DNA of 32,000 bases from Gammaproteobacteria bacterium. Lineage in GTDB: Bacteria > Pseudomonadota > Gammaproteobacteria > JBIOEC01. Position 1 is the stretch's first letter, and each line of letters opens with the position of its first letter. The notes beneath the pieces were generated by a model, which did no database searches, was not told where the DNA came from, and saw only the letters and a program-made list of their open reading frames with translations. A program made the translations under genes and the position numbers. Shown here piece by piece: positions 434 through 22,367 of the stretch. Location: NCBI GenBank assembly GCA_965279305.1, contig OZ257143.1, positions 1,560,001 through 1,592,000 on the forward strand. Direction: 5' to 3'.

Positions 434-1207
434 ATGAAAACTAAACTCTCTGTTTTAGGTCTTTTATCGGTCGCACTATTGAGTGCTGGCGGCTATTATT
501 TGGCTGAATATATCAAACTAGAGCAAGTCGATAATCAAGTAAAAGCGTGGAAAACCCGTTTAGGTGATTATATTACTTTTGAATATGATGTAATTAGCGC
601 TCGTTTATGGAGTAACAGTATTTCTTTAGAACGAGTATTAATTACTTACCCTACCTTAATGAGCATAGAAAAGTTAACTTTTGCGCCTGTTGAAATAGAT
701 GGTGAGCTTGAACAGTTATATATTGATGCAAAAGGTTTGAGCTTTACCGTCCCAGCCGCTACTGACTCATTAGCCTGGTATGGAAACCTTCAAATAGATT
801 ATCAATACGATTCAGCGAAAAAACAAATTGATTTAACTCTATTATCTGATTTTCCGCAATTATTGAACGGCGAAATTAAAACTACTTTACAAGAAATCAC
901 ACCTAATATTGATTTAGTATTTAGTTATCCTAATGTGCTTTTATCTTCTTTAAGCGTGCAATTTCAAAACTATGGATTATTGCAAACCATGGGGTATGGG
1001 AACAGTAACGACGCAGAACTCATAGAGTGGATGAATCAATTTGCTCAAAAAAACCAGAGACAAGCGTTTGCTGATTTTTGGTTAAAGAACATGCCCCTTA
1101 ATATTCAATTTTCACCTGAATATCCTGTGCCGCTCTATCGTCTCTTAGAAAACGATCGTTTATTTTGGCAACATCCTGCCGTTATCATGCAGCCATTGCC
1201 TGGTTAA
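434..1207 (+). CDS. Hypothetical membrane-anchored or secreted protein (257 aa)
   Basis: ORF track. N-terminal hydrophobic segment LSVLGLLSVALLSAGGYYL looks like a signal peptide or anchor. No family recognised. Confidence 0.6.
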   Translation: MKTKLSVLGLLSVALLSAGGYYLAEYIKLEQVDNQVKAWKTRLGDYITFEYDVISARLWSNSISLERVLITYPTLMSIEKLTFAPVEIDGELEQLYIDAKGLSFTVPAATDSLAWYGNLQIDYQYDSAKKQIDLTLLSDFPQLLNGEIKTTLQEITPNIDLVFSYPNVLLSSLSVQFQNYGLLQTMGYGNSNDAELIEWMNQFAQKNQRQAFADFWLKNMPLNIQFSPEYPVPLYRLLENDRLFWQHPAVIMQPLPG

Positions 1208-3615
1208 GCAGGAGTAGCAATTAACAAGGATTGCAAAGAGGGTGGTGGTGCTTCTTCTGTTTTTTGTTGAGTAGCAAATGTATCGGCAGTAAAATATTTA
1301 TTAACACTTTGCCCAAACGTTATTTTTTCAGGAACTGGCGCTTCTACTTTTTGCAATGAAGCAGTACTTACTGAGCTCGCCAGCGTTTCACTGGATTCTT
1401 CTTTGATTTGTTTGGGCGCTTTTTTAAACACTGCTTTATCATGCTTTCTTTGGACATAAGGTTTTATTGCATAAATAATTCGTTTCAAATTATCTTGAGT
1501 TGGACTTACTTCATAATCCGCAATAATATAGAGATTTTTTCGGGCATTTTCCATTTTTATTTCATGTTTAGTATGAAGTTGGGTATAACTGTTTTCACCA
1601 AAGCTAAACAATTTTCTTAAAAATAGACCGAATTTACCTAGAGCAGTAGTAGGTTGTTCCATTTTAGAATATGAACTATTGGAGCTAGGGAAAGTTAGAT
1701 TAACGATATAATTAAATACCGGTAATTGTGCTACACCTTCCAAGATGGATTTGGGTAATCCCATCACCAATGAAATAGAAAAAGATATGGCATAGGTAGG
1801 TAATATATATGGGAAAAAAATCAGTGCTTTTAAAATAATGCTTTTAGGTAAAGGAATATAAGCGCTTATTTTTTCAAATGGATAACGAATGTTGTAATAA
1901 ACTCTATGAGCAAGAGCAGCAAAAAGACTAGATAAATTTGATTTTGCACGGTATTTTTCATGGTATTCTAAGAAAAATGTTTTAGCTGCTTGAACGTCAT
2001 TAGCATTCCATTCATGTTCAGGCTTTAGTTCATAATTAATTGTATCAGGGGCAAATTCATTAATGGCATAAGGATCGGTTTTAAGTTTATTTCCACCATG
2101 CATGACAGCAGAAGAAACAATGCCTGCCGTTGCATAGCCTGCAAACAACGTCCACAAAGTGGTTATTCCTCCGGTAAGCAAACCCGTTAAATGAGCCAGA
2201 ATAAAAATAACGGTAATCACTACATATCTTATAAAGCGTTTAAACCACCAATTACTAGCCACATTAATCGTATCAGGCTCTAAGCCATCAAAAGTGCGAT
2301 GTAGATTCACAGATGCATGCTGAGCACGTCCTTTTCCAATTTCATGGCCAACGGCAGCACCCACTAAAGTGCCCAAAAAAGCTGATAAAGGAATGACAGC
2401 TATAGGGGAAAAAATAAATGAAAAAGCAGTTCCTAATACCGCAAATATGGCAGCAGATGCAGCTGCTGCTGTCGTGGTTTTATTATGAATACCAATATTT
2501 TGATCTTCTAAAGGACTGGTTCCACCACTAAATAAACGTAGTCTTTGATCGCTTACGGTAAAGCCAAGCAAATATTTGAGTTGTTTTTTTTGCTTTTTAT
2601 TTAAATCTAAATAGGTATCGGTTTTCCAGAATTTAAGGCGCTGATACCATTTTTTAGGTTTATTAATATCTTTAATAATTTCTTCAAAGTCTTTTTCAGT
2701 AAGGAAAGTGCTGTGATCGGATTTTTTTGATTTTATCTTTCCAAATCTGACATTAAATTTGATTAATAATGTATTAGCATCACGAATTTGGTTTAGCTCA
2801 TCATGGTTAAATGTATTATTATCCAGAATTTTAAATTTGTTAGAAATAGCTTTTTTTCCGATCTCTGAGTGGATCAATTGTATCGTTAGTCTTTCGGCTA
2901 ATTCAGGAGTGAGCTCGGCAATAGTTAGTTTGGAAGGAAGCCCAAAAACCTCACGTACCTGACTGATTTTCTCTTGGGTAAAGCCTAATAAGTATTTAAA
3001 AGTATTCCGCTTGGTCGCAGGGATTATTTCGGCTATTATATTTAATTCTCTATCGGTAAGAATTCTTTTTTTATTGGCTTTGGGAACAGAATTCAATGCG
3101 TAAAATTTTGCTTTTAAGTCGTTTTTTTGATTATTATTCAACTCTAGTTTTTTAGATAAAAGCTCAGCTTTTTTATCGGTTAGTTCAGAAACGTAGGTAA
3201 TGTTAAATCGTGTTTTCCATTTATTTCTTAATGCTTGACCTGCTTTCACGATTCCTCTTACTAAAAATGGAAACGAAAAGTTAATGGCAATAGCGCCTAA
3301 AACTAAAGTAGCCACTCCCCAACCCACAGGATTAGAAACAATAAGAAGAGCGGTAAAGGTAGCCGCGATGACAACGGCAATTAAGGTAATAATATTAAGG
3401 GCTCTATTTTGTCTTCGCTCTGTTCTTAATGCATAGGCGAGGGGAGTTTTTTCTGGGGTAATACTTTTATACTCATCGGTAGGTGAGGAGCTAAAAATAG
3501 AGCCTATACCGTAGAGAAGCGAATTGAGATAGGGAACGTATAAATCGACGTAGCGTTTAAATCTAGCATTAAAAGATAAATCTTCTGTTAGATAATGGGG
3601 TAATTCCTTAGACAT
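1204..3615 (-). CDS. Large orphan membrane protein (803 aa) with several hydrophobic hairpin clusters and an internal duplication
   Basis: ORF track. Long hydrophobic clusters include ALNIITLIAVVIAATFTALLIVSNPVGWGVATLVLGAIAINFSFPF, AAIFAVLGTAFSFIFSPIAVIPLSAFLGTLVGAAVG, YVVITVIFILAHLTGLLTGGITTLWTLFAGYATAGIV and ALIFFPYILPTYAISFSISLVMGL. Lys-rich soluble regions lie between them. GAGGGA lies upstream of the ATG. Confidence 0.7.
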   Translation of the reverse strand: MSKELPHYLTEDLSFNARFKRYVDLYVPYLNSLLYGIGSIFSSSPTDEYKSITPEKTPLAYALRTERRQNRALNIITLIAVVIAATFTALLIVSNPVGWGVATLVLGAIAINFSFPFLVRGIVKAGQALRNKWKTRFNITYVSELTDKKAELLSKKLELNNNQKNDLKAKFYALNSVPKANKKRILTDRELNIIAEIIPATKRNTFKYLLGFTQEKISQVREVFGLPSKLTIAELTPELAERLTIQLIHSEIGKKAISNKFKILDNNTFNHDELNQIRDANTLLIKFNVRFGKIKSKKSDHSTFLTEKDFEEIIKDINKPKKWYQRLKFWKTDTYLDLNKKQKKQLKYLLGFTVSDQRLRLFSGGTSPLEDQNIGIHNKTTTAAAASAAIFAVLGTAFSFIFSPIAVIPLSAFLGTLVGAAVGHEIGKGRAQHASVNLHRTFDGLEPDTINVASNWWFKRFIRYVVITVIFILAHLTGLLTGGITTLWTLFAGYATAGIVSSAVMHGGNKLKTDPYAINEFAPDTINYELKPEHEWNANDVQAAKTFFLEYHEKYRAKSNLSSLFAALAHRVYYNIRYPFEKISAYIPLPKSIILKALIFFPYILPTYAISFSISLVMGLPKSILEGVAQLPVFNYIVNLTFPSSNSSYSKMEQPTTALGKFGLFLRKLFSFGENSYTQLHTKHEIKMENARKNLYIIADYEVSPTQDNLKRIIYAIKPYVQRKHDKAVFKKAPKQIKEESSETLASSVSTASLQKVEAPVPEKITFGQSVNKYFTADTFATQQKTEEAPPPSLQSLLIATPA

Positions 3616-7535: not shown

Positions 7536-7900
7536 AACTACCCAATAACGCATTGACTAAAACACTACAAACTTTACCTAAAGACTTTATTTATTTTACA
7601 GCGTGTAAAATAATTTTAGCCTTGCTAGTTTTTTTAAGCGTAGGTGCTTTATTTGTATTTGCTGCCATTATCCCTTTGCATATGTACAACGCGCCTTGGT
7701 GGGCCGTTGTAGCTGGCGGGTGGGGCGGATGGTTTTTCTTTTTAAGTATTTTCTTGGTCGCTTATTTTGTTTTACAAAGTCGCTATAGAACCAAATTAGA
7801 ATTACTGATTAATCTGGCCAATAAGCAAATTTTTGCCAGCTTAGGCATTTTTGCTTTTAATAATGTGCTACGTAAGCTTCATCTTAAGAAATCGCGATAG
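7532..7900 (+). CDS. Small two- to three-TM membrane protein, in the YqjE-like position downstream of the ElaB/YqjD-like gene
   Basis: ATGA start/stop overlap with the upstream gene. Hydrophobic segments IILALLVFLSVGALFVFAAIIPL and WGGWFFFLSIFLVAYFVL. The family assignment rests on gene order only. Confidence 0.5.
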   Translation: MKLPNNALTKTLQTLPKDFIYFTACKIILALLVFLSVGALFVFAAIIPLHMYNAPWWAVVAGGWGGWFFFLSIFLVAYFVLQSRYRTKLELLINLANKQIFASLGIFAFNNVLRKLHLKKSR

Positions 7901-10082
7901 ATGATAATGCGCTTACTGCAGGACTATCTGGCTCATCGTTAATATAGTTTTTCACCAAATCAGCGCCTGTCGTATCGTACATTTCTAACCATTTTAGGGG
8001 GGAGCGTCTTGAGCCCACTCCCTCGCGCAAAAAAACATCCGTCCATGCACTAACTGGTAGTTTAGATATTAATGCTTTGAGTAAGAAATAATTATTGATG
8101 GCTAATAATTCACGACCAGAAGGATGATGACATAGCCAATATAAAGCGCTGGTATTGGCATGCTTGCCTTTTTGCACTACATAATTCCAGGCGCTAGCGG
8201 GCAAGCTTAATACTCTCTCTAATAAAAGCAGATTATCATAAAACAAATCAATACCTGCATCATCACGACATAGTGAAAATAAACAACTGCTTTCACTATC
8301 TTGATCATACGATCCTTGAGATGTCCATACATGATCATCCATTTCTATTAAATAATAAATCAATCTAGGTTCTTTTGAGAGTAGTACTAAGCCTCTCTTT
8401 TGCGACATTAATATTGATAAAGGTGAAGTTCCTTTTAAAAAGCCACGTGATTCAATCGACCCCCATACGTATAGAGGCAATTTAGCGAGTATTTCAAAGG
8501 CTTTACCTACCTCTAATAAGTAAATCAGATCAGGAAGACAAATTAATTGTATGGCTGATAAACTTCTTTTTACAGAAAAAGGATTACTAAAATCCTTAGG
8601 CCTGAACGCTGCATACATTCTTGAGTAGTCTACCCCCCATTCACAATTTCTTGTTTTTGAAAAATCATTTTCAGGTTCAGAATCATTGCTTTTTACTGCC
8701 CACAAAACTTCACCCAGTCTACAAATTTTTTCTAATAATAAAGGCGATCTTGATAATAACTGAACAGAAAAGAGATTCATTAATGCATTTTGAAGTATAT
8801 TGCAATGTTCAAAAATAAGAGGTTTTATAATGGTCACAGAACCATCTTGTTGGTTGAATATTCTCCATTCGAGACTAGCTGCGCCATTTTGGTAGAATAC
8901 GATTTGTTTAAAGTAGTTTAAAATACTCTTAACACTCATGAAACAAACTCTTTTAAATAAAGGGTACGGTAGAGAAAATACACCGGTATGAAATGCTCGT
9001 TCCAAAATTTGTTGATCAGTAAAATGGATAGCTGCATCTACTAGGGTGTCCTCTGAAAATTCTTGAAATTTATCATCTAATAGAGGAAATGTAGTTAAAA
9101 CCCTATTATCTGAATCATGCGTTAATAATAAACCCAAAGCAGATAAAGCATTTTTTCTTTTGCTCCAAGTCTTTTCTGACAATCTGCACAATAAATTTCC
9201 AAAATCGCTATGAGATAACACTAGATTTATGCCCTCGGAGCTACTGAGCAAAGATTCCAATGGTTTTCGCGTAATTTGACCCAGATCATTTATCCCTCTT
9301 TTTCCCCACAGCTCATCCGGTAATGAGCAAAGCCTTCTAATTAATATAGGATGCTCTGCCATCCAAAAAATATCACTGGAAGAAAATAAAACATGCAACG
9401 GTGTCATATTGATGTCTGTAAACGGCCATATATAAGGATTAAATTGTGTAGTACAAGCCCATGCTTTCAATGAAAGAGAAGCAATTTTAGTAGTTAATGC
9501 AGGTTTTCGAAAGCAAGCATCGCTGGACAATAATAGACATGCTAAACGTAATGGAGTCTCATTATCCTGAACCATCCCAGGTGAATTTGTCCAACATGGG
9601 TCTGGTACTTCCGCAATAATATCAAAAAGTTGAGGATATTTTACTAAATATCTAGGGTTATTAAAAACTGACATTAAAAACTTTTTGGCCCAGAAAGGTA
9701 GTTTAAATATTAAGTCATTGAATAAATAATCATGGCGAAGCGAATATTCTAGTGAATAATCTAAGGTCTCACAAAAAAAATCTCCTAATCTAAGGTGGGC
9801 TACCGCAGCATATTCTGGATATGAAAAATACTCACTGACACGAGATAATATGAAAGAAGTTAATAAAGTTTGATTACCCTTAATATGATTTTCACTTTCT
9901 GAAAAAACGTTCGGTGTTTCAGAAAAAGGTAATTCCGGTATTTGCCTTAGCCTAGGTGCGCCAGAGTTCATTCTTGGACTATGAATGAAGACAGCAGAGG
10001 AAGGGCGCCTAATAACTTCAGGCACAGGACGTGGAGCAGCTTTAGATTTTTTCCAAGCACGCCCCTTTAATTTTTTAAACAT
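7884..10082 (-). CDS. Orphan 732-aa protein built from at least 8 degenerate ~45-50-aa repeats (LPxxxW...G...[ST]PL..L.....G..LL)
   Basis: ORF track. Repeats are visible by eye, for example LPASAWNYVVQKGKHANTSALYWLCHHPSGRELL, LPVSAWTDVFLREGVGSRRSPLKWLEMYDTTGADLV, LPLYVWGSIESRGFLKGTSPLSILMSQKRGLVLL and LPDELWGKRGINDLGQITRKPLESLLSSSEGINLV. Confidence 0.75.
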   Translation of the reverse strand: MFKKLKGRAWKKSKAAPRPVPEVIRRPSSAVFIHSPRMNSGAPRLRQIPELPFSETPNVFSESENHIKGNQTLLTSFILSRVSEYFSYPEYAAVAHLRLGDFFCETLDYSLEYSLRHDYLFNDLIFKLPFWAKKFLMSVFNNPRYLVKYPQLFDIIAEVPDPCWTNSPGMVQDNETPLRLACLLLSSDACFRKPALTTKIASLSLKAWACTTQFNPYIWPFTDINMTPLHVLFSSSDIFWMAEHPILIRRLCSLPDELWGKRGINDLGQITRKPLESLLSSSEGINLVLSHSDFGNLLCRLSEKTWSKRKNALSALGLLLTHDSDNRVLTTFPLLDDKFQEFSEDTLVDAAIHFTDQQILERAFHTGVFSLPYPLFKRVCFMSVKSILNYFKQIVFYQNGAASLEWRIFNQQDGSVTIIKPLIFEHCNILQNALMNLFSVQLLSRSPLLLEKICRLGEVLWAVKSNDSEPENDFSKTRNCEWGVDYSRMYAAFRPKDFSNPFSVKRSLSAIQLICLPDLIYLLEVGKAFEILAKLPLYVWGSIESRGFLKGTSPLSILMSQKRGLVLLSKEPRLIYYLIEMDDHVWTSQGSYDQDSESSCLFSLCRDDAGIDLFYDNLLLLERVLSLPASAWNYVVQKGKHANTSALYWLCHHPSGRELLAINNYFLLKALISKLPVSAWTDVFLREGVGSRRSPLKWLEMYDTTGADLVKNYINDEPDSPAVSALSSIAIS

Positions 10083-13007: not shown

Positions 13008-13907
13008 ATGATTTCATTTAGGAACCTATTATCAATAACGTTAATATCAGCTTTAGGGGCTTTTTCTATGGCCTTTGCTGATAAAGAAGCGCCAACTCAA
13101 ACTATCGTACACAAAAAATTAATGGAACTTGAAGCGTCTGCTAATGGGCGATTAGGTATATCTGTGCTCAATACGGCAAACAATGAACATATTGAATACC
13201 GTGCTGAAGAACGTTTTCCTATGCAAAGTACGTTTAAAGTGATGGTGGTAGCGGCAATTCTTAAGCAAAGCATGAATGATGATCAACTTCTTCAAAAGAA
13301 AATCAGCTATACAAAACAGGATATTGCCACTTGGTCTCCTGTTACTGAAAAACATATTTCCAAAGGAATGACTATTTCTGAACTGTGTGCAGCCGCTATT
13401 ATGTATAGCGATAATACCGCCGCCAATCTTTTAATAAAAGAACTGGGTGGGGCAAACGAAGTGATGGTATTTGCTCGTTCTATTGGTGACTATACTTATA
13501 GCTTAGAAAGAAAACCAGAAGAGTTTGCCTCTATTCCTGCTGATATTAACTATACCTCCACACCTGCAGCTATGGAAAAAAGCCTAGAAAAAATAATATT
13601 GGGCGATGTATTAGGAACAAAAGAAAAAGAACAATTACTCCATTGGATAAAGGAAAATACAACAGGCGATCTGCGAATACGCGCCGGTGTGCCAAAAGGG
13701 TGGGTGGTTGCCGATAAAACGGGCTCTGGCGATTATGGTATCACCAATGATATAGCCGTGATCTATCCGCCCACTTGCAAACCCATTATAGCTAGCATTT
13801 ATTTTATACAAAACAAAAAAGAAGCGACTACGCGTCCCGATATTATTGCTTCAGCAACACGTTACATTATGGATGACTTAGCAGAAAATGATGACTGTTT
13901 AAAATAA
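13008..13907 (+). CDS. bla: Class A (serine) beta-lactamase homolog with an atypical omega loop
   Basis: Signal peptide ...GAFSMAFA. S-T-F-K at aa 74-77, SDN 60 residues later (Ambler 70/130 spacing) and KTG in ADKTGSG. The omega loop reads LERKPEEFASIP instead of L.R.EP.LN..IP. Confidence 0.9.
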   Translation: MISFRNLLSITLISALGAFSMAFADKEAPTQTIVHKKLMELEASANGRLGISVLNTANNEHIEYRAEERFPMQSTFKVMVVAAILKQSMNDDQLLQKKISYTKQDIATWSPVTEKHISKGMTISELCAAAIMYSDNTAANLLIKELGGANEVMVFARSIGDYTYSLERKPEEFASIPADINYTSTPAAMEKSLEKIILGDVLGTKEKEQLLHWIKENTTGDLRIRAGVPKGWVVADKTGSGDYGITNDIAVIYPPTCKPIIASIYFIQNKKEATTRPDIIASATRYIMDDLAENDDCLK

Positions 13908-13969: not shown

Positions 13970-14033
13970 AAAAAAATAGTATTTGAACAAAGGAGAGCCG
14001 ATAAACTACTTTTTTATAATGAGGAAACAAGCC

Positions 14034-14465
14034 ATGAAAAAAATTATTTCTTTTTTATTACCTTTAACTCTTTTTACTACAGTTGTTTATGCTTATGAAA
14101 AATCGCTAGCAATAGAACTTTCTGTCACTCCTGATTTGCCCCCGGAGCAAAAGGTACTTATCTACTACGAACTTTACGAAGATGATAATCCTGTCGCTTT
14201 TAAAAATATGCTCTTATCCAATCAAGAAAGAGAAGTGGTTGAACCCCAAGACCAATCTTCCTTCGCAGAACAAATAAAATTAAGCTCTATTCAACTCCCT
14301 GGACAAGATAAATTAGCCATGCATGGCTTGGAAGATTGCTTAGCCGGTATTAATTACAATGAAGATAGCTATAGTATTGTACTAGCACTCACTATTACTA
14401 GCACAGAAGAAGAGATAAAAGCTTCTTGTGAGCGTTATGTAACTCAATATATTCCTCTACCCTAA
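14034..14465 (+). CDS. Hypothetical secreted protein (143 aa)
   Basis: The track ORF starts at TTG 13983. The ATG at 14034 follows GAGGAAACAAGCC and opens a classic signal peptide MKKIISFLLPLTLFTTVVYA. Confidence 0.6.
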   Translation: MKKIISFLLPLTLFTTVVYAYEKSLAIELSVTPDLPPEQKVLIYYELYEDDNPVAFKNMLLSNQEREVVEPQDQSSFAEQIKLSSIQLPGQDKLAMHGLEDCLAGINYNEDSYSIVLALTITSTEEEIKASCERYVTQYIPLP

Positions 14466-14676: not shown

Positions 14677-15054
14677 ATGAAAACGATATTATTTGTAGAA
14701 GATGATGGGATAAATCAGGCTATTGTAAAAGGCATGCTAAATAAAATGGGATATTCAAATATTCAATTTGCAAGTACTGCTGCTCAAGCATTAGACTTAC
14801 TAGAAAATCCAGGCCTTAAAATTGACGCAATATTGATGGATCTGGGTCTACCAGATATGGATGGGGTTGAACTCACAAAAAAAATAAGAGCTAGCAGCCT
14901 TACTGCAAAGGGCGTTCCTATTATTGCTATTACTGGAAATAGTCGCGAAAAAGCCAAAGAAGAAAGTTTAGCAGCAGGAATGAATGCTTTTTTGACCAAA
15001 CCAGTTAAACGAGAAATTTTAGAAAGTACGCTCAGTGAATTTCTTAATGATTAA
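14677..15054 (+). CDS. Single-domain (CheY-like) response regulator
   Basis: Receiver signature ILFVEDDGINQ, ILMDLGLPDMDG (phospho-acceptor Asp), PIIAITGN and FLTKP. No output domain. Confidence 0.9.
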   Translation: MKTILFVEDDGINQAIVKGMLNKMGYSNIQFASTAAQALDLLENPGLKIDAILMDLGLPDMDGVELTKKIRASSLTAKGVPIIAITGNSREKAKEESLAAGMNAFLTKPVKREILESTLSEFLND

Positions 15055-15070
15055 AAAAAGACCAGGCTTA

Positions 15071-16702
15071 CTATTTTTTATTTTTCCAGTTTGTCCATGC
15101 CTCAACTATTTTTTTATCTAATTCACTAGGTAGAATAGGTTTTTTTATAAAATCGAAGCAACCCATCTCTCTCGCTTTATCGTACCATTTTTTATCTCTA
15201 TTTTGCTTTGGATGAAGGGATAATAATTTCATTAATGAAAAATATTTTTCATCTTTGTGGAGATTATTTATAAGCTCAAGTGGATTATTGATCTCGTCGT
15301 CTACTATTAAAATTTCAAAAGGGTTTTTATTTTTTAGTGCATCTTCCAGCTTATTAACTACCTCAGAGCTATTTGTCTTTGAAATAAAAGCTTGTTCAAA
15401 CTGATTAAAAAGTGTCTCAGTTGATGTAATTTTGTCGCTTACAATAAGTATACGGACTCTTTGATGAAGTTTTTCCCACTCGGATACGAAGAATGCCATA
15501 TCAAGGGCTTGAAATGGAAGGTTGACGGTAAATTTGGTGCCTTCTCCTGGTTCACTCTCAACCTCAACTTTACCATTAAGTTTATCTACCAACTCTTTTA
15601 CCACCGATAAACCAATACCATGGCCTGCTTTCAAGCCTTTATTAGATAACTCTAAGCGATGAAACCGCTCAAAAATTTCTTTATATTTATCTTTAGGTAT
15701 TCCTTTGCCTGTATCTTTTACGGCTATTTGCAAATCGATATTATCGCCTTCTTTAGAAAAGACACTCACTGATATAGAGATGTGTCCTTCATCAGTAAAT
15801 TTAACTGCATTACTAATCAGGTTAAGCAAAATGCTTGTGACACAATATGCATCGCTTATTAAATGGCGCGGGACATCTGCGGGATAGCAGATTATGATAT
15901 CTACGGGCTTATTTTTTAACTGGAATCTAAATCCGTCAACCACCGACTCTATAATTTCGAGTAAATTAAGCTCTTCTTGGACTATCTCAAGCGTCCCAGA
16001 AGCAATTTTTTTATAGTTCAATATATCATCAACAAGATCTATCACTCTCAATGTTGATTTTTCTTGCATAGTAATAAGCTCTTGTATGTCCTCCGGTAAC
16101 TCTGGTTTTCTATCCGAGAGGAGTTGTACTGTCCCATAAATACCATTAAGAGGTGTTTTAAAATCATGGCTCATGTTTTCCATAAAAGCATCTTTGGCAA
16201 GATTAGCTGCTTCTGCCTTTTCTTTAGCTTCTAGTAAAGCTGCTTGAGTTTCTTTAAGTTCAGTAACATCAAGAGAATTACCAATAATTCCTATAACATT
16301 ATCATTCTCATCTAAAAATGGAAGTTTAAGGGATGTAAAAAACCTACGACCTAGTTTAGGTAAATTTACAACTTCCTCTTTATAGAGGGGTTCTCGAGTT
16401 CGCATTACCTCAATGTCGTTTTGCCTTAGTTCCTCGGCTTGTTCGGGCCATAAATCGAAATCGGTTTTTCCTATAAAATCTTTGCGGGAAGCAATATTAA
16501 TAGCTTCTAATAATGCTTTGTTACAACCCAAATAATGGCCTTCTTTGTCTTTCCAGTAGAAGTTACCTGGCATAACATCTGTCATTTTTTCCAAATAGCT
16601 TTGAAAAGTGTTTTTTTCAGAAGGGCGATCGTTTGAGTTTTGAGGATTTTTCTTACTTATTTTATTAGAAGATAGTTGCTGAGCTTTAGTTTTCTTTACC
16701 AT
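15071..16702 (-). CDS. Cytoplasmic PAS-containing hybrid sensor histidine kinase (PAS, HisKA, HATPase, divergent receiver)
   Basis: H-box SHDFKTPLNG (His179), N-box LLNLISNAVKFT, G1 VKDTGKGIP, F IFERFHR and G2 GHGIGLSVV. C-terminal receiver-like region at aa 416-537. No TM segment seen. An alternative start lies at 16585 (Met40). Confidence 0.9.
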   Translation of the reverse strand: MVKKTKAQQLSSNKISKKNPQNSNDRPSEKNTFQSYLEKMTDVMPGNFYWKDKEGHYLGCNKALLEAINIASRKDFIGKTDFDLWPEQAEELRQNDIEVMRTREPLYKEEVVNLPKLGRRFFTSLKLPFLDENDNVIGIIGNSLDVTELKETQAALLEAKEKAEAANLAKDAFMENMSHDFKTPLNGIYGTVQLLSDRKPELPEDIQELITMQEKSTLRVIDLVDDILNYKKIASGTLEIVQEELNLLEIIESVVDGFRFQLKNKPVDIIICYPADVPRHLISDAYCVTSILLNLISNAVKFTDEGHISISVSVFSKEGDNIDLQIAVKDTGKGIPKDKYKEIFERFHRLELSNKGLKAGHGIGLSVVKELVDKLNGKVEVESEPGEGTKFTVNLPFQALDMAFFVSEWEKLHQRVRILIVSDKITSTETLFNQFEQAFISKTNSSEVVNKLEDALKNKNPFEILIVDDEINNPLELINNLHKDEKYFSLMKLLSLHPKQNRDKKWYDKAREMGCFDFIKKPILPSELDKKIVEAWTNWKNKK

Positions 16703-19700
16703 TCTGAATAAACCTTGTTTTTATTAAATAATCTATATATTTTTTTAAAAGATTATTATCTATGTTTGGATAAGCTAAATTTAACTTCTTAAATGCAACC
16801 CTGGTGTTATTATCACATACTTTGGATATTCCAGAAAGGCCTTCGTTCCATTCTATATTTGGATTCATATGTAATGATAATAAATTGAATAAAGCATTAT
16901 TCTCATCAATTTCAGCTAAATATTTACTTCTCCATTCACTGGAATCTACTATAGAAATAGGGAACCCATTGTTATTTAGGAACAAAATTAACTCTTTCCA
17001 AGTAATAGAATGGTTATTAGAAAAATTAAAAACATTTTTCTTAATGTCACTTTCTAATGAAATTTTTATAATTGATTCGGCCAAAAAATCCACCGGTAGT
17101 ATATTCAGTTCCATTTCCCAGTCAGGGGCTGCTTTCATTTGAATACAGCCTTTTAGCAAGAGCAGAAGATGATTTTTTTCGGAAGATACTCTTCCGGTCT
17201 GAGTATCCCCTAAAATCCAACCAGGTCGAAATATTTTAACAGCAATTCCCTTCAAATGGGCTACAGCCAATATCTTTTCAGAAGCCCATTTTGTTTGATT
17301 ATATCCATCTAATAAATGGGAAGAATTCGAAAAGTCTGGAATAAAGTCTTCAATTACTTCTTCTTCACTTATATATTCAACAACAGCTGATAGGGTAGAA
17401 ATATAACAGATTTTTTTTATTCTATTTAAAGTAGCTAATTTAATAACTTCGATTGTGCTTAAAACATTTTCTTGTCTAAGTATTTCATAACCATAAATGT
17501 GGTTTACATGAGCCGCATTATGGTATATGGCGTCAATTTTTTCAGTTAAAATAGAATAAGTTTCAGAAGATAAGCCAAGACAAGGAAGAGATATGTCTCC
17601 AAATAATGGTTTAATTCGATTTTTAAGCCTTAAATTCAAATCATATTTTTTTATGGTTTGATTTAATCGAACAACTGCTTGATCCATTGAGCTTGCTCTG
17701 ATCAAGCAATAAATATCACCCTCATATTCTCTTGATAAAGAAGCCAATAAATATGCGCCTAAAAAACCAGTGCAGCCTGTTATTAATATTGCGCCACCAT
17801 TTTTATTAGAGTGCTGACTATGTTTTCTTATATTGTATTTATTCCAGCTTATATCATCAGCTATAATTTTTTTACTTAATTCATCAATTTTTAAGTCTGA
17901 TTTATTGTAAATAATACGAGCCAGATAGGCAATTGTTGGAAACTTCAAAAATTCATGTATATTTAAATCAAAATTAAACATGCGCTTTACATCCAATATT
18001 AACTTGGTTAATAAAAGAGAATGACCTCCTAAATCAAAAAAATCATCCAAAACGCTCACTTTTTTCAAAAAAAATAATTTAGCCCATATGGTACATAACT
18101 TTTGTTCAATTTCACTGGATGGTGGCACATATTGAGATTGATATTCTCTTTTATCTTTATCTGGGAGAGGTAGTTTTTTGAAATCAATTTTACCATTTAA
18201 TGTTAATGGTATTTTATTAACTATTAAAAAAAATCGAGGGATCATGTAGTCAGGAAGGGTTTTTGACAATTCCCTTTTTATCTCTGATAAGACATTATTT
18301 CCAACCGATTTATCTTTAACTAAATATGCAATTAAATAATTTTCTTGGTTTTTTTCTTTAGCTTCGATTACCACGCATTGGAGAATATTTCCGTTTTTTA
18401 ATACAATTTTTTCAATACCCTCCAATTCAACTCTGTGGCCACGAATTTTAACTTGCTTATCAATTCGACCCAGATAATCTATCGTGCCTTCAGGTGTCCA
18501 CCTGGCAATATCCCCTGTCTTATACAAGCGATCATTCCCATTTTCTAAAAAAGGATTATTAATAAATTTTTCGTTTGTTAGTTCTACATTATTTAGATAC
18601 CCGATAGCCACTCCATCGCCCCCCGTAAATAATTGTCCAGGGACTCCAAGCGGAGTAGGGAGCAAATGCTCGTCCAGAATATATGCTGTAGTATTAGAAA
18701 TAGGTTTCCCTATAGGAATAGAATCAGAATAAAGATTGTTTTCACTCATTAAATAGGTCGTTGTAAAAGTAGTATTTTCTGTGGGGCCATATCCATTTAG
18801 TATATATTTTGGAGATCCCGCTTCGCATTGGATAAGTTTCTGCACTTTTTCAGGCTTAACAACATCACCGCCCACCAGCAAATAAGTTAAATTACTAAAC
18901 ATTTCAGGCATATTAGAAACATGCTCATGAAATAGAGGGGCAGTAAGGAACAAAATCGAGATTTTTTTATTTTTTAGAAAACGAGAAAATTTAATCGGGT
19001 TTAATAAGGAATCTTTGGAGACTTCTATAAGAGTTGCCCCATTTAAAAGAGCGCCCCATATTTCAAATGTAGCTGCATCAAAACTGATATTCGCGGCTTG
19101 TGCAACCTTATCGAAAGATTTTATAGAAATATAATTGGTGTTTTTTACTAGTCGGATAATTCCTTTATGGGTCACCATAACTCCTTTAGGTTTTCCGGTA
19201 GTACCCGAAGTGTAAATAATATAAGCCAATTGGCTTGAATCAAATGGGCACACTAAATTTTGAAAGTCTTCATTTTCAATATCGTGAGCCACTCCATCAG
19301 GAGAAATAATTTTTGAAGTAGTAATTTTTTTAATTACCTTAGTATATTTTTTTTTGACTAAAATTACTTCTGGTTTACAATCGGCTAAGATATTTTTTAT
19401 ATGCTCAATACCAGACATTGGATCTATAGGAATATATGAAGCACCAATCTTCAAAATGGCTAATAAATTAACAGCTAATGATAAATCATGGTCTGCCAAT
19501 ACCGCTATAAGACTATTTTTCCCACACTTGTTTTTTAACAAAAAATTAGCAAGTTTATTTGATTTTTCATTTAATTCTTTATATGTTAATGATTGACTAT
19601 TCGAAATAACTGCTTTATGGTCAGGGGTTTCTTTTACCTGTTCCTGAAAAATTTCAGTAATTGTTTTTTCCGATGGATAGGATGTTGTGGTTTTATTCCA

Positions 19701-21404
19701 ATCAAATAAAATTGATTGACATTCTTTTTCTGTTAAAAGAGATATTTGATCAATTTTATTTTTTTTATTATCCACTAAACTTTTCAATAAAATTGAAAAA
19801 TGTTGCGGAATATTATCTACAATCTGTTTCACGTATCTTCTCATTAATACTTCTTCATTAACTAGCCATGTTATTTTTCTACCATTCGTATTTATTATCA
19901 TAGCAACATCTGTGTTTAAAAGCCTTTCGATTTTTTCGATTGGATCATCAGTAATAAAAATACCAATTTGGGAGGCATGGATATAGTTACGTAAATCAGG
20001 GTATCGTTGCTGAATATCCTTTAAATATGATATGTTTTCAACAATTGATAAATAATGGGTATTAACTAAACTTACAGCTTCCCAAAAAGTTGTTTTTCCA
20101 TCTAGATCAACAAGAAAGGGAAGTGTTTCACTAAAAAAATCATTAATATTTTCATCTATACATTTTAATTTTGGATGGTATAAAAATATACCTAATGTCT
20201 CTTTATTGCCTAATTTATATAAATAAACCAACCAAATCGCTAATACTATCTGATAAAATTCCACCTCCGAAAATGCATTTTTAGCTTCTTCATAAATATC
20301 AATGGGTACAAATAAAGTATGTACAGTAATATATTTTTTATTCTTTAATATAGAGTTAGGCGCCTTAAGAAAGGGTAGGAGGGCAGGTTTAAAGCACCTT
20401 AGTTGCTTTACCCAAAAATATTCAAACTTTGATAAAGTACTACTTATTTTTTCAAATTCCTTTAAGTCATTGTCAGTAGGGCTGTTTAAGCGAACACCTA
20501 ATTTAAGATTATGTTTTTTAGCGACTTCTGCTAATGAGCAGGGCACACCTTCTATTGTTAAAATTTCAAATATTAATAGGTCATATGTTTTTGTGGAAAT
20601 CTGCCAATTATTTTCATCTAAATTTACCAATGTTCCAGGAAAATGCTTGGATTTTTCTGCTGTTATAGAACAATTTTTTATGGTAAATGCATCGCCTGAT
20701 ATTTTAAATTTTGTCAAACTTAATTGATTAATATAATGCCCCAATTCTAATGCTTTATATGTTTGTACTATTATTTCAGCAGATGAATTCCAGTTAATCC
20801 ATCCATTGCCAGGAGGCTTATGAAACACACTATAATAACTTCTTAATTCCAAGTTTTGAGGAGAAATTTGATATGCAGATTGTTCTAATTCTGGGATAAG
20901 TTTGGTAAATAATTTCACTCCTATCTGATAGCATTTCATGCTTAAACTAAAAGCCGTATCATTTTTTTCTATATTTATTTTTTCTTGTTTTAAAATACCT
21001 CCTCCATCGATCTGACTATTCATGATATGCCAAGTGACACCATGTGTTTTTTCATTATTAAGAATAGCCCATGAAGTAGGAAACAAACCTGCATATTGGG
21101 GTAGTAAGGCAGTATGAAAATTAATACTCAAAAATCTTGGTAAGCTTATGATATCGTCAGGAAGTATCTGGCTATTTATGATGCTAAATAAATAATCAAA
21201 TTCTTTTTTTAATAATGTTGGTTTAGCCTTTTCTATTGTTTTGAAACAAGGGATATTTTTTTCAGTAGCCCATTCTTGGATAGTATCAAGGGGAGATATA
21301 ATACCTAGACATTGCCATTTCCGTGATAGCAATATTTTTGCACAATCGATAAGCAAACTATCTTCTCCCACTAGAAAAAACTTCAGCGGAGCGGCATTTT
21401 TCAT
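16686..21404 (-). CDS. Single-module NRPS-like synthetase: formyltransferase-like domain, condensation-domain remnant, adenylation, PCP and thioester reductase domains
   Basis: F domain: INFHTALLPQYAG and QIDGGGIL. A1-A10 motifs include LTYKELN, AYIIYTSGTTGKPKGV, FDAATFE, NGYGPTENT, YKTGDIARW, GRIDKQVKIRGHRVELEGIE, LPDYMIP and NGKIDFKKL. PCP: FFDLGGHSLL. R domain: ILITGCTGFLGAYLL and YNQTK. Confidence 0.9.
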   Translation of the reverse strand: MKNAAPLKFFLVGEDSLLIDCAKILLSRKWQCLGIISPLDTIQEWATEKNIPCFKTIEKAKPTLLKKEFDYLFSIINSQILPDDIISLPRFLSINFHTALLPQYAGLFPTSWAILNNEKTHGVTWHIMNSQIDGGGILKQEKINIEKNDTAFSLSMKCYQIGVKLFTKLIPELEQSAYQISPQNLELRSYYSVFHKPPGNGWINWNSSAEIIVQTYKALELGHYINQLSLTKFKISGDAFTIKNCSITAEKSKHFPGTLVNLDENNWQISTKTYDLLIFEILTIEGVPCSLAEVAKKHNLKLGVRLNSPTDNDLKEFEKISSTLSKFEYFWVKQLRCFKPALLPFLKAPNSILKNKKYITVHTLFVPIDIYEEAKNAFSEVEFYQIVLAIWLVYLYKLGNKETLGIFLYHPKLKCIDENINDFFSETLPFLVDLDGKTTFWEAVSLVNTHYLSIVENISYLKDIQQRYPDLRNYIHASQIGIFITDDPIEKIERLLNTDVAMIINTNGRKITWLVNEEVLMRRYVKQIVDNIPQHFSILLKSLVDNKKNKIDQISLLTEKECQSILFDWNKTTTSYPSEKTITEIFQEQVKETPDHKAVISNSQSLTYKELNEKSNKLANFLLKNKCGKNSLIAVLADHDLSLAVNLLAILKIGASYIPIDPMSGIEHIKNILADCKPEVILVKKKYTKVIKKITTSKIISPDGVAHDIENEDFQNLVCPFDSSQLAYIIYTSGTTGKPKGVMVTHKGIIRLVKNTNYISIKSFDKVAQAANISFDAATFEIWGALLNGATLIEVSKDSLLNPIKFSRFLKNKKISILFLTAPLFHEHVSNMPEMFSNLTYLLVGGDVVKPEKVQKLIQCEAGSPKYILNGYGPTENTTFTTTYLMSENNLYSDSIPIGKPISNTTAYILDEHLLPTPLGVPGQLFTGGDGVAIGYLNNVELTNEKFINNPFLENGNDRLYKTGDIARWTPEGTIDYLGRIDKQVKIRGHRVELEGIEKIVLKNGNILQCVVIEAKEKNQENYLIAYLVKDKSVGNNVLSEIKRELSKTLPDYMIPRFFLIVNKIPLTLNGKIDFKKLPLPDKDKREYQSQYVPPSSEIEQKLCTIWAKLFFLKKVSVLDDFFDLGGHSLLLTKLILDVKRMFNFDLNIHEFLKFPTIAYLARIIYNKSDLKIDELSKKIIADDISWNKYNIRKHSQHSNKNGGAILITGCTGFLGAYLLASLSREYEGDIYCLIRASSMDQAVVRLNQTIKKYDLNLRLKNRIKPLFGDISLPCLGLSSETYSILTEKIDAIYHNAAHVNHIYGYEILRQENVLSTIEVIKLATLNRIKKICYISTLSAVVEYISEEEVIEDFIPDFSNSSHLLDGYNQTKWASEKILAVAHLKGIAVKIFRPGWILGDTQTGRVSSEKNHLLLLLKGCIQMKAAPDWEMELNILPVDFLAESIIKISLESDIKKNVFNFSNNHSITWKELILFLNNNGFPISIVDSSEWRSKYLAEIDENNALFNLLSLHMNPNIEWNEGLSGISKVCDNNTRVAFKKLNLAYPNIDNNLLKKYIDYLIKTRFIQNGKEN

Positions 21405-21580
21405 GTGATATTGATTCCTAAATTATCAACCGTTATGCAATGGTATTACCAGAATACTCAATTCTATCTTACGTAAGTTTAGCAAATCTGATAGTACATC
21501 ATTCTAGCGTAAAATAGGCTAGCGGTAACTGGATAAATATACTTATTCGAAGTCATTAGCTAATATAGTTTAATTACTTA

Positions 21581-21608
21581 ATTATACCTGTTGGTGACTA
21601 TCATTCAA
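21581..21608 (-). promoter_or_regulatory. Near-consensus sigma70 promoter TTGAAT-16 nt-TATAAT for the synthetase gene
   Basis: On the minus strand, TTGAAT is the complement of 21603-21608 and TATAAT the complement of 21581-21586. It begins 7 nt after the PPTase stop and implies a ~170-nt leader before the ATG at 21404. Confidence 0.5.
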
Positions 21609-21614
21609 TAGGTT

Positions 21615-22367
21615 CTATTGTATGATATTTGAGCAAGAGTGGTAGTAAATTTGATAATAAGAAGAGATCCCTTCATAAACTAGAGAGGCTTGATAATCCA
21701 TTTCTGCAGGTAATGGGATTAGCTGGTAAACGCTACCTTTAACAAATAAAATCCCTGGATTTATAACATTTAATGTATGTAATGGGTAAGTAAGCCCTTC
21801 GCCCATACATTTAATTAAAGCTTCTTTTCGTGTCCATATTTCAAAAAACGCTTTTTTCTGCTCTTGAAAGGATAAAGGTGATAGCATTTGGTATTCTTCT
21901 TCTGTAAATAACTCTTCGGCAATTACACCATAATCTATAATTTTTTTAATATATTCTACATCAATCCCCATCCTGTATTTTTTACCTACGGCTATCAGTA
22001 GGCAATTATTAGCATGTGAGATATTAAAGTGGATATTCTCGGTATTTTGAGAAGGGCTGATTTCAGGTTTTCCATATCGAGAATAGGCCATACGGATACT
22101 TTGTGGGGGCAGGTGGAGATAACTCCCTAATAAAATTCGCAAAATCCCTCTTGATAAAACATAATTTTGATAGGGTTCTTTTCGGGTATATGCGGATATC
22201 CTATCAAATTCATCAGGGCTTAAAAGTGGCTCCAATCTCGGAGTATAAGGCAGCAATTCATTAAACTTAATGCTCCATACATGTAATATGCCCGAAGAAA
22301 GTTCCGGGAATGGGGCGTTTAATTTTAATAGAGTGTTTAAGTCGACTTTTTGAATATTAAGGTTCAA
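21615..22367 (-). CDS. Sfp-type 4'-phosphopantetheinyl transferase
   Basis: Motifs YGKPEI, FNISHANN, GIDVEYI and WTRKEALIKCMGEGL. The track start is a TTG without an obvious RBS, so the start is uncertain. Confidence 0.85.
   Translation of the reverse strand: MNLNIQKVDLNTLLKLNAPFPELSSGILHVWSIKFNELLPYTPRLEPLLSPDEFDRISAYTRKEPYQNYVLSRGILRILLGSYLHLPPQSIRMAYSRYGKPEISPSQNTENIHFNISHANNCLLIAVGKKYRMGIDVEYIKKIIDYGVIAEELFTEEEYQMLSPLSFQEQKKAFFEIWTRKEALIKCMGEGLTYPLHTLNVINPGILFVKGSVYQLIPLPAEMDYQASLVYEGISSYYQIYYHSCSNIIQ

Follow-up and report, generated by a model that had tools for sequence, protein, structure and literature searches.

The stretch of DNA analysed here, 32,000 nucleotides (nt) of contig OZ257143.1 from a gammaproteobacterium (the window), encodes a nonribosomal peptide synthetase (NRPS) with a single module and, directly downstream on the same strand, a soluble histidine kinase with a PAS sensor domain. 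The synthetase has the order formyltransferase (F), condensation-domain remnant, adenylation (A), thiolation (T) and reductase (R), and we refer to enzymes of this type as F-A-T-R synthetases. The synthetase-PAS-kinase pair is conserved in every F-A-T-R locus examined. Because the two genes are adjacent in 11 of 11 loci and the PAS subtype follows the type of the synthetase, a functional link between the two proteins is well supported by sequence. That the locus is a make-and-sense signalling pair, in which the kinase would sense the product of the synthetase, is a reading to which we give an even chance.

The first-pass annotation of this DNA had claimed four back-to-back genes, and open reading frame (ORF) calls and Pfam matches bear this out. 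A single-domain, receiver-only response regulator of 125 amino acids (aa) is encoded on the plus strand (14677-15054), and the other three genes lie on the minus strand. These are the kinase (15071-16702, 543 aa, Pfam PAS_4 + HisKA + HATPase_c), the NRPS (16686-21404, 1572 aa) and an Sfp/HetI-type phosphopantetheinyl transferase (PPTase; 21615-22367, 250 aa, TTG start, Pfam ACPS + AASDHPPT_N). Searches with Pfam and NCBIfam profiles confirmed the main domains of all four proteins. On direct reading of the sequence, the kinase begins with an ATG at 16702 and thereby shares 17 nt with the synthetase gene; this overlap (16686-16702, minus strand) comprises the synthetase stop region and the kinase start. 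The regulator is convergent with the kinase, with 16 nt from stop to stop; both distances agree with those annotated. A search of the synthetase-kinase junction for a terminator-like site on the minus strand found none.

To read the pairing across genomes, the window was compared with ten other F-A-T-R genes (L081-L087 and L166-L168). In all 11 loci a PAS-HisKA-HATPase gene lies directly downstream of the synthetase on the same strand. The two genes overlap by 17 or 14 nt in the closest cases and are about 90 nt apart in the widest. Apart from the kinase, no neighbour is common to these loci. The co-occurrence of the synthetase with a nearby PAS kinase is thus confirmed, and the notion that homologous synthetases elsewhere might never stand next to such a kinase is decisively contradicted. 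For 15 further kinase matches the longest contig is equal in length to that of a synthetase match, which suggests that the two lie on one contig. In addition, the pairwise identities of the synthetases correlate with those of the kinase PAS domains (Mantel r 0.88, p 4e-4, nine pairs). PAS kinases also follow dimodular F-C*-A-T-C-A-T-TE synthetases (L089, L112; C, condensation; C*, its remnant; TE, thioesterase), an F-A-T-C-A-T synthetase (L124) and a C-A-T-R synthetase (L170), and no such kinase was seen beside the synthetase in the fetched flanks of about 60 more distant F-NRPS loci. A profile scan of genome contigs with the full-length family alignment returned generic A-domain motifs and unrelated NRPSs and was of no use for synteny. 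The four-gene module proposed in the first-pass annotation therefore holds for its synthetase-kinase core, but not for its other members, as the adjacent PPTase is found in the window only and the separate regulator in one subclade. On the L085 contig, which comes from a Legionella bin, two C-A-T-R genes lie directly upstream of the F-A-T-R and kinase pair (L085:1-12659), and a second F-A-T-R and PAS-kinase pair (L167) lies about 40 kb away.

The kinase itself is built from three parts, all encoded on the minus strand: a PAS sensor domain of the subtype found with F-A-T-R synthetases (16247-16600, residues 35-152), a HisKA + HATPase transmitter core recognised by Pfam (15503-16210, residues ~165-400, H-box His179) and an atypical receiver-like domain (15074-15460, residues 415-543), which aligns to receiver (REC) domains and receives no Pfam call. 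No transmembrane segment was detected in the kinase (maximum 19-aa Kyte-Doolittle mean 1.29), in agreement with its earlier description as a protein free of membrane helices. Its description as a hybrid kinase can be kept in part. The receiver-like domain retains the acceptor Asp (D468), the Ser and the Lys, but it is atypical, with SD in place of the acidic pair, and neither a Response_reg nor a histidine phosphotransfer (Hpt) domain was called by Pfam. The canonical receiver and Hpt of ArcB-type tripartite kinases are thus lacking. Within the subclade of the window kinase the motifs xDK, IIDDE (with D468), LLS and KP are conserved. Most partner kinases are proteins of 790-934 aa with the order (PAS)-PAS-HK-REC-Hpt (HK, histidine kinase transmitter), whereas this subclade has the atypical receiver and no Hpt.

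The domains of the window kinase have different closest relatives. In P0131 and P0133, two paralogues encoded in the same genome, the transmitter and the atypical receiver are more than 70% identical to those of the window kinase, while the PAS domains are different. Taken domain by domain, the identities to P0131, P0133 and P0134 (from locus L169) are 73-74% for HisKA, 73-76% for HATPase, 68-73% for the receiver and 33-39% for PAS. Compared with the Legionella kinases linked to F-A-T-R synthetases, the values are 35-55% for HisKA, 36-41% for HATPase and 50-59% for PAS, and the receiver gives no full-length match. Judged by these identities, the window kinase is demonstrably a mosaic. Since its PAS domain is 50-59% identical to the F-A-T-R-linked domains and 33-39% identical to those of the paralogues, the sensor domain is seen to follow the type of the neighbouring synthetase, independently of the transmitter lineage. 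The PAS domain of the paralogues carries a 5-residue insert and an Arg where the F-A-T-R type has a Lys; it is 54-55% identical to, and groups with, that of the kinase beside the dimodular F-NRPS of L089. The kinase linked to the C-A-T-R synthetase (L170) has a third PAS subtype. In our view, this tracking of the synthetase by the sensor is the strongest evidence for a functional tie between the PAS domain and the synthetase.

The synthetase is a real and intact F-C(lobe)-A-T-R enzyme. Its domains are encoded on the minus strand in the order F (20505-21404, Pfam Formyl_trans_N + Formyl_trans_C), C-lobe remnant (19665-20420, residues ~329-580), A (18165-19649, AMP-binding(+C)), T (17913-18104, PP-binding) and R (16707-17789, NAD_binding_4, thioester reductase). 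An alignment of 25 homologues revealed invariant catalytic residues in every domain: in the F domain (triad N95/H97/D133), in the core motifs of the A domain, at the phosphopantetheine Ser of the T domain (S1129, in the motif LGGHS) and in the R domain (the TGxxGxxG motif and Y1368/K1372). The A domain scores 377 bits with TIGR01733 (cut-off 317) and carries the core motifs YTSGTTGKPKG at 731 and NGKID at 1070. The R domain, of the short-chain dehydrogenase/reductase (SDR) type, scores 276 bits with TIGR01746 (cut-off 213) and has the TGxxGxxG motif (TGCTGFLG) at 1209. The spacer of about 280 residues between F and A corresponds to the C-terminal lobe of a condensation domain (family profile 329-578 against McyB 8hlk 200-469, E-value 1.6e-8). 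The family profile was needed for this assignment; the spacer alone matched just its final 65 residues in the PDB. No HHxxxDG motif was present in residues 300-585 on direct reading. The "C*" of the first-pass annotation is therefore borne out as a C-terminal lobe without HHxxxDG, as opposed to a complete, functional condensation domain of two lobes. An F domain followed by a C-lobe remnant is the rule in the F-initiated NRPSs of metagenomes (about 74 of 80 loci, L086-L165), whereas LgrA, the initiation module of linear gramicidin synthesis, has no such spacer.

Homologues of the synthetase are proteins of about 1530-1615 aa with 33-45% identity. They occur in the species Legionella cardiaca, L. 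jamestowniensis and L. maioricensis and in numerous Legionella-like bins from metagenomes. The best match in the PDB is LgrA (E-value 9e-216). In NCBIfam, AusA gives the best alignment, with a score that falls far short of its cut-off. The specificity code of the window A domain, read from the alignment, is DAFFLGGTFK. Most relatives have DAFWLGGTFK, the published code for Val, and one subclade has DAWT[IV]AAVCK, the code for Phe. Alignment-based codes were used throughout because an 8-aa insertion in the Val-type enzymes makes the fixed-offset reading wrong at positions 299 and 301. The code of LgrA for Val differs from the classic one and could not validate the assignment, so that the assignment relies on the published Stachelhaus codes. 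From the domain order and the code, the expected product would be an N-formyl-Val or N-formyl-Ile aldehyde or alcohol. Dimerisation to pyrazines and pyrazinones, as with the products of PvfC and AusA, depends on the amine and would be prevented by the formyl cap.

A profile was built from twelve synthetase-linked PAS domains. Its best match in the PDB was the PAS domain of VqmA from Vibrio cholerae (E-value 2.4e-11), ahead of the BvgS PAS domain. The AlphaFold2 (AF2) model of the window PAS domain has a pLDDT of 94.7, and its top Foldseek match is the VqmA-DPO structure 6UGL_A (TM 0.83, rmsd 2.4 Å). In VqmA, K101 hydrogen-bonds the carbonyl of the ligand while F67 and F99 stack on its ring, and the protein also binds the linear N-acyl amino-ketone Ala-AA (10.1101/2019.12.19.881847). 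K101 aligns with K126 of the window kinase, a residue that is invariant in 40 PAS domains. In the synthetase-linked PAS domains the position of F67 is taken by Leu or Ile and that of F99 by Ser, Val or Ala. The replacement of both Phe contacts in this putative pocket fits a ligand other than DPO. The output is also of another kind, as the window PAS domain feeds a histidine kinase and not a LuxR-type helix-turn-helix (HTH) domain. A word-based protein search with the PAS domain alone gave three matches. It is common for this PAS class to appear as 5-30 tandem copies within one protein, which is then 1000-4800 aa long.

The regulator gene, annotated as a convergent CheY-like regulator, was confirmed as such. 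Response_reg is its only Pfam domain (E-value 2.3e-25), and it shows the motifs EDD, MDLGLP, ITGN and KP. Among foreign kinases in readable loci, those closest to the window kinase are in L169 (61% identical) and L170 (54%). In the same convergent position, these two loci have regulators with 65% and 50% identity to the window regulator, so that regulator identity tracks kinase identity. In the window, L169 and L170 alike, the receiver-only gene ends 4-16 nt from the kinase stop. This conservation of the convergent regulators beside the L169 and L170 kinases indicates that transmitter and regulator form a conserved cassette. In the window, kinase and regulator are thus very likely cognate partners, with a putative phosphotransfer between them. 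The separate regulator is confined to one kinase subclade, and most relatives carry REC-Hpt inside the kinase. In L169 (L169:9001-11683) the kinase and a convergent regulator of 125 aa are followed by a PAS-GerE protein of 209 aa, a full-length VqmA homologue (E-value 1.7e-11). L170 (L170:946-8368) encodes a C-A-T-R synthetase of 1468 aa and, after a gap of 48 nt, a PAS-PAS kinase, a convergent regulator and a stand-alone Hpt protein. Its layout equals that of the window, except that the synthetase starts with an acyl-capping domain and the phosphorelay is split completely.

If the locus is a make-and-sense pair, it would work as follows. The PPTase, possibly the general one of the genome, would prime the carrier domain, the A domain would load a branched-chain amino acid (Val or Ile), and the F domain would formylate the carrier-bound amino acid with formyl-tetrahydrofolate. 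The R domain would then release the product, reduced once to an N-formyl amino aldehyde or twice to an N-formyl amino alcohol. Because the N-formyl cap would prevent dimerisation, the product is predicted to be small, neutral and diffusible. The kinase gene, which overlaps the synthetase gene, is probably co-transcribed with it, and the PAS subtype of the kinase, found in our data set only beside F-A-T-R synthetases, would most likely bind the product or a close derivative. Binding of the ligand would set the autophosphorylation of the kinase, and the phosphate would pass to the atypical receiver and the convergent regulator, towards an output encoded outside the window. We infer which product is made, that the PAS domain binds a ligand, and in which direction and on which target the signal acts.

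Several observations weigh against this scheme. The lead of VqmA over BvgS and generic PAS/LOV domains is marginal at the level of the fold. With 7,089 50%-clusters at E<=1e-30, among them many that have tandem copies, the PAS class is very common, and to belong to it tells little of the ligand. Between Val- and Phe-type partners, the conservation of the PAS domain (45-66%) exceeds that of the synthetase (33-47%), as would also be expected if the kinases responded to a shared cue that has nothing to do with the amino acid side chain. The PAS partners of the two types differ consistently at five positions, including PGNF versus PGSI and the equivalent of VqmA Y36. These differences are confounded with phylogeny and, because the two groups are also two clades, provide only a lead. 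Outside the window, the same 1.87-Mb genome encodes three kinase paralogues (P0131, P0133 and P0139; 55-66% identical overall), and the sister cassette in L169 has no adjacent synthetase. A scan of the window for Hpt and PAS-GerE genes found neither, and the window encodes no DNA-binding output or exporter. Whether the enzyme releases an aldehyde or an alcohol cannot be read from the sequence, and a search of the accessible literature for experiments on bacterial F-A-T-R members found none.

Another explanation, rather unlikely in our view and the best surviving of the alternatives, is that the product acts outwards and affects a host or competitor, for example as an aldehyde that reacts with proteases or as a formylated ligand of a host receptor. 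The kinase would then time production: it would control the operon in response to a cue from inside the cell that is unrelated to the product and is sensed by the PAS domain, for instance the supply of amino acids, the redox state or the host phase. Peptide aldehydes are protease inhibitors, and the loci belong to Legionella-type intracellular bacteria with effector-like neighbours, among them ankyrin and kinase giants in L081 and L168; large orphan ORFs are present in the window as well. A PAS domain that is conserved across partners with different amino-acid codes, and that belongs to a class of generic sensory modules, also suits this explanation. However, the conserved unit has no DNA-binding regulator able to control the operon. 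Nor would one expect, from a generic cue, a PAS subtype that switches with the synthetase type while the transmitter remains constant. Furthermore, the VqmA-type carbonyl-contacting Lys is invariant in the F-A-T-R partners but replaced by Arg in the paralogues that lack that synthetase.

It is also conceivable, at a clearly lower probability, that the kinase monitors the load or toxicity of the pathway, its PAS domain sensing the reactive aldehyde or a precursor in the producer cell and adjusting detoxification or flux. The kinase would then serve feedback and not respond to a population signal. This would agree with a cytoplasmic kinase without transmembrane segment whose gene overlaps that of the synthetase, and with the genes for an aldo-keto reductase, an iron-containing alcohol dehydrogenase (Fe-ADH) or a short-chain dehydrogenase upstream in L081, L168 and L084. 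Such accessory reductase and dehydrogenase genes, however, are not conserved across the loci, and a multi-step phosphorelay (REC-Hpt in most relatives) is a typical feature of signalling pathways that integrate inputs. Being small and neutral, the product would pass through membranes anyway, so that the sequence cannot separate feedback from communication. Finally, that a kinase-regulator cassette landed beside an NRPS gene by accident, as the cassette without synthetase in L169 and the three kinase paralogues in the genome might suggest, is highly improbable and close to refuted by the synteny, given the invariable pairing amid unrelated flanks of synthetases just 33-47% identical, the overlapping or closely spaced genes on one strand and a PAS subtype specific to F-A-T-R neighbours.

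The make-and-sense reading can be extended beyond the window, although only tentatively and with less confidence than we place in the reading itself. Small NRPSs of Legionellales (F-A-T-R enzymes making N-formyl products and C-A-T-R enzymes making N-acyl products, with Val or Phe codes) may each have a matched cytoplasmic VqmA-like PAS sensor, so that these bacteria would use private chemical languages. Recombination could attach the units of PAS domain and synthetase to one cassette of transmitter and regulator or another, as in the mosaic kinase of the window. If true, signalling of this family, be it for quorum sensing or for host phase, would form a new class and stand apart from Lqs, the one autoinducer system that has been characterised in Legionella-type bacteria. 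The window pair would then be a second system, based on an NRPS. Its predicted ligands would be open to synthesis and direct testing, and in its receptor domain K126 would be a candidate for ligand contact. Variants of Val-type and Phe-type specificity would be available from nature, together with a natural domain swap that shows how sensor and output recombine. The pair would moreover give a first function to a bacterial F-A-T-R synthetase, a type characterised so far only in molluscs.

The first-pass annotation had further given the synthetase its own promoter and leader, which could not be substantiated. In the intergenic region upstream of the synthetase (21405-21614, minus strand) there is one promoter-like site, TTGAAT-16-TATAAT at 21608-21581, with 10/12 matches. 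Promoter-like matches as a whole occur at chance level (40 found, 40.6 expected in shuffles). The 210-nt leader was negative in the structure test (z +1.25) and had no Rfam match. When the upstream 200 nt of the synthetase genes from the window and 10 relatives were compared, no common motif was detected, the best 7-mer being present in 7 of the 11 loci and shuffles reaching up to 9. The PPTase, whose best NCBIfam match is HetI (E-value 2.3e-39, below the cut-off), lies next to an F-A-T-R gene in the window and in none of the 10 other loci, and a single broad-spectrum Sfp-type PPTase has been reported for Legionella genomes (PMC5126622). Thus, that the PPTase is dedicated to this synthetase, as had been proposed, is not established.

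The whole block had also appeared more AT-rich than its flanks. This is true of the synthetase gene, with a GC content of 0.307, but the kinase, regulator and PPTase genes (0.345-0.352) are close to the window (0.360). A foreign AT-rich island spanning the block was considered and rejected, the AT-richness being limited to the synthetase gene. Elsewhere in the window, a gene of the class-A-type beta-lactamase family (13008-13907, Beta-lactamase2, E-value 2.9e-46) precedes the regulator gene at a distance of about 0.8 kb, with a small secreted-looking ORF (13983-14465) between the two. Two large ORFs (1204-3615, 803 aa, and 7884-10082, 732 aa) have no Pfam match and resemble Legionella-type orphan effector-like proteins. 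A gene of the phage integrase family (25393-26625) is followed by an ORF of 1746 aa (26666-31906) without Pfam match, and the GC content here locally reaches 0.47. A repeat search of the window gave nothing meaningful and a tRNA search gave no tRNA.

The arrangement had been taken as undescribed in the first-pass annotation. The synthetase type, however, is already known from in silico work as Legionella "cluster C", an F-A-T-Red NRPS for which an N-formyl aldehyde, alcohol or oxazoline was predicted (Tobias et al. 2016, PeerJ, PMC5126622). In that study, clusters B-D sit with a transcriptional-regulator gene, and novel signalling compounds were suggested as their products (PMC5126622). Both the synthetase type and the signalling proposal are therefore published, and the window does not hold a categorically new system. 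It shares with cluster C the F-A-T-Red architecture and the adjacent regulator gene, which is a PAS kinase gene in 11 of 11 loci; the cluster C paper does not name this partner as a PAS histidine kinase. The window synthetase is just 42-45% identical to the Legionella members. The window also differs from cluster C in that its kinase is truncated and mosaic, its regulator is encoded separately and a PPTase gene adjoins the synthetase gene.

Among characterised enzymes, FmtATR of the molluscan bursatellin pathway has the same Fmt-A-T-R order as the window enzyme and a similar size (~180 kDa). Its T-R part has been shown to perform a four-electron reduction to the amino alcohol, and its predicted product is N-formyl-tyrosinol (JACS 2025, PMC11869996). 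It differs in being an animal gene with introns, specific for Tyr, which feeds ACT/P450/FMO tailoring and has no kinase partner. An ancient bacterial origin is suspected by its authors (PMC11869996), and Legionella-type intracellular bacteria would be plausible donors. In LgrA (PDB 5ES5, 6MFZ) the F domain formylates carrier-bound Val, but there is no C-lobe spacer between F and A and the enzyme continues to elongation modules, whereas in the window enzyme a reductase follows after one module. The first-pass annotation had pointed to PvfC (A-T-R) and AusA (A-T-C-A-T-R), and this analogy can be retained to the extent that they are small NRPSs with reductive release and low-molecular-weight bioactive or signalling products. 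Both are without an F domain, and their free amino aldehydes condense to pyrazines or pyrazinones, a route for which N-formylation would block the required amine. Neither is known to have a PAS kinase next to it.

On the kinase side, the best NCBIfam alignment is to ArcB (residues 28-539 against ArcB 148-646, PAS-HisKA-HATPase-REC), at 223 bits against a cut-off of 838; unlike ArcB, the window kinase has no transmembrane helices and no Hpt, and its receiver is atypical. A signal synthase gene that adjoins its receptor gene is known from RpfF-RpfR (BDSF, Burkholderia) and Lqs (LqsA-LqsR-LqsS). RpfR senses through a cytoplasmic PAS domain and LqsR is a regulator without DNA-binding output. The enzymes and chemistry of these systems are unrelated to those of the window, LqsS is a membrane kinase, and RpfR acts through GGDEF-EAL. 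VqmA differs from the window kinase in its LuxR-type HTH output, in the origin of its ligand (the Tdh synthase as opposed to an NRPS) and in a PAS identity of only ~24%, with both stacking Phe residues replaced by aliphatic ones in the window kinase. Nevertheless, VqmA-DPO offers a cytoplasmic PAS receptor for a small carbonyl-bearing autoinducer, and the Lys that contacts this ligand is conserved in the window kinase.

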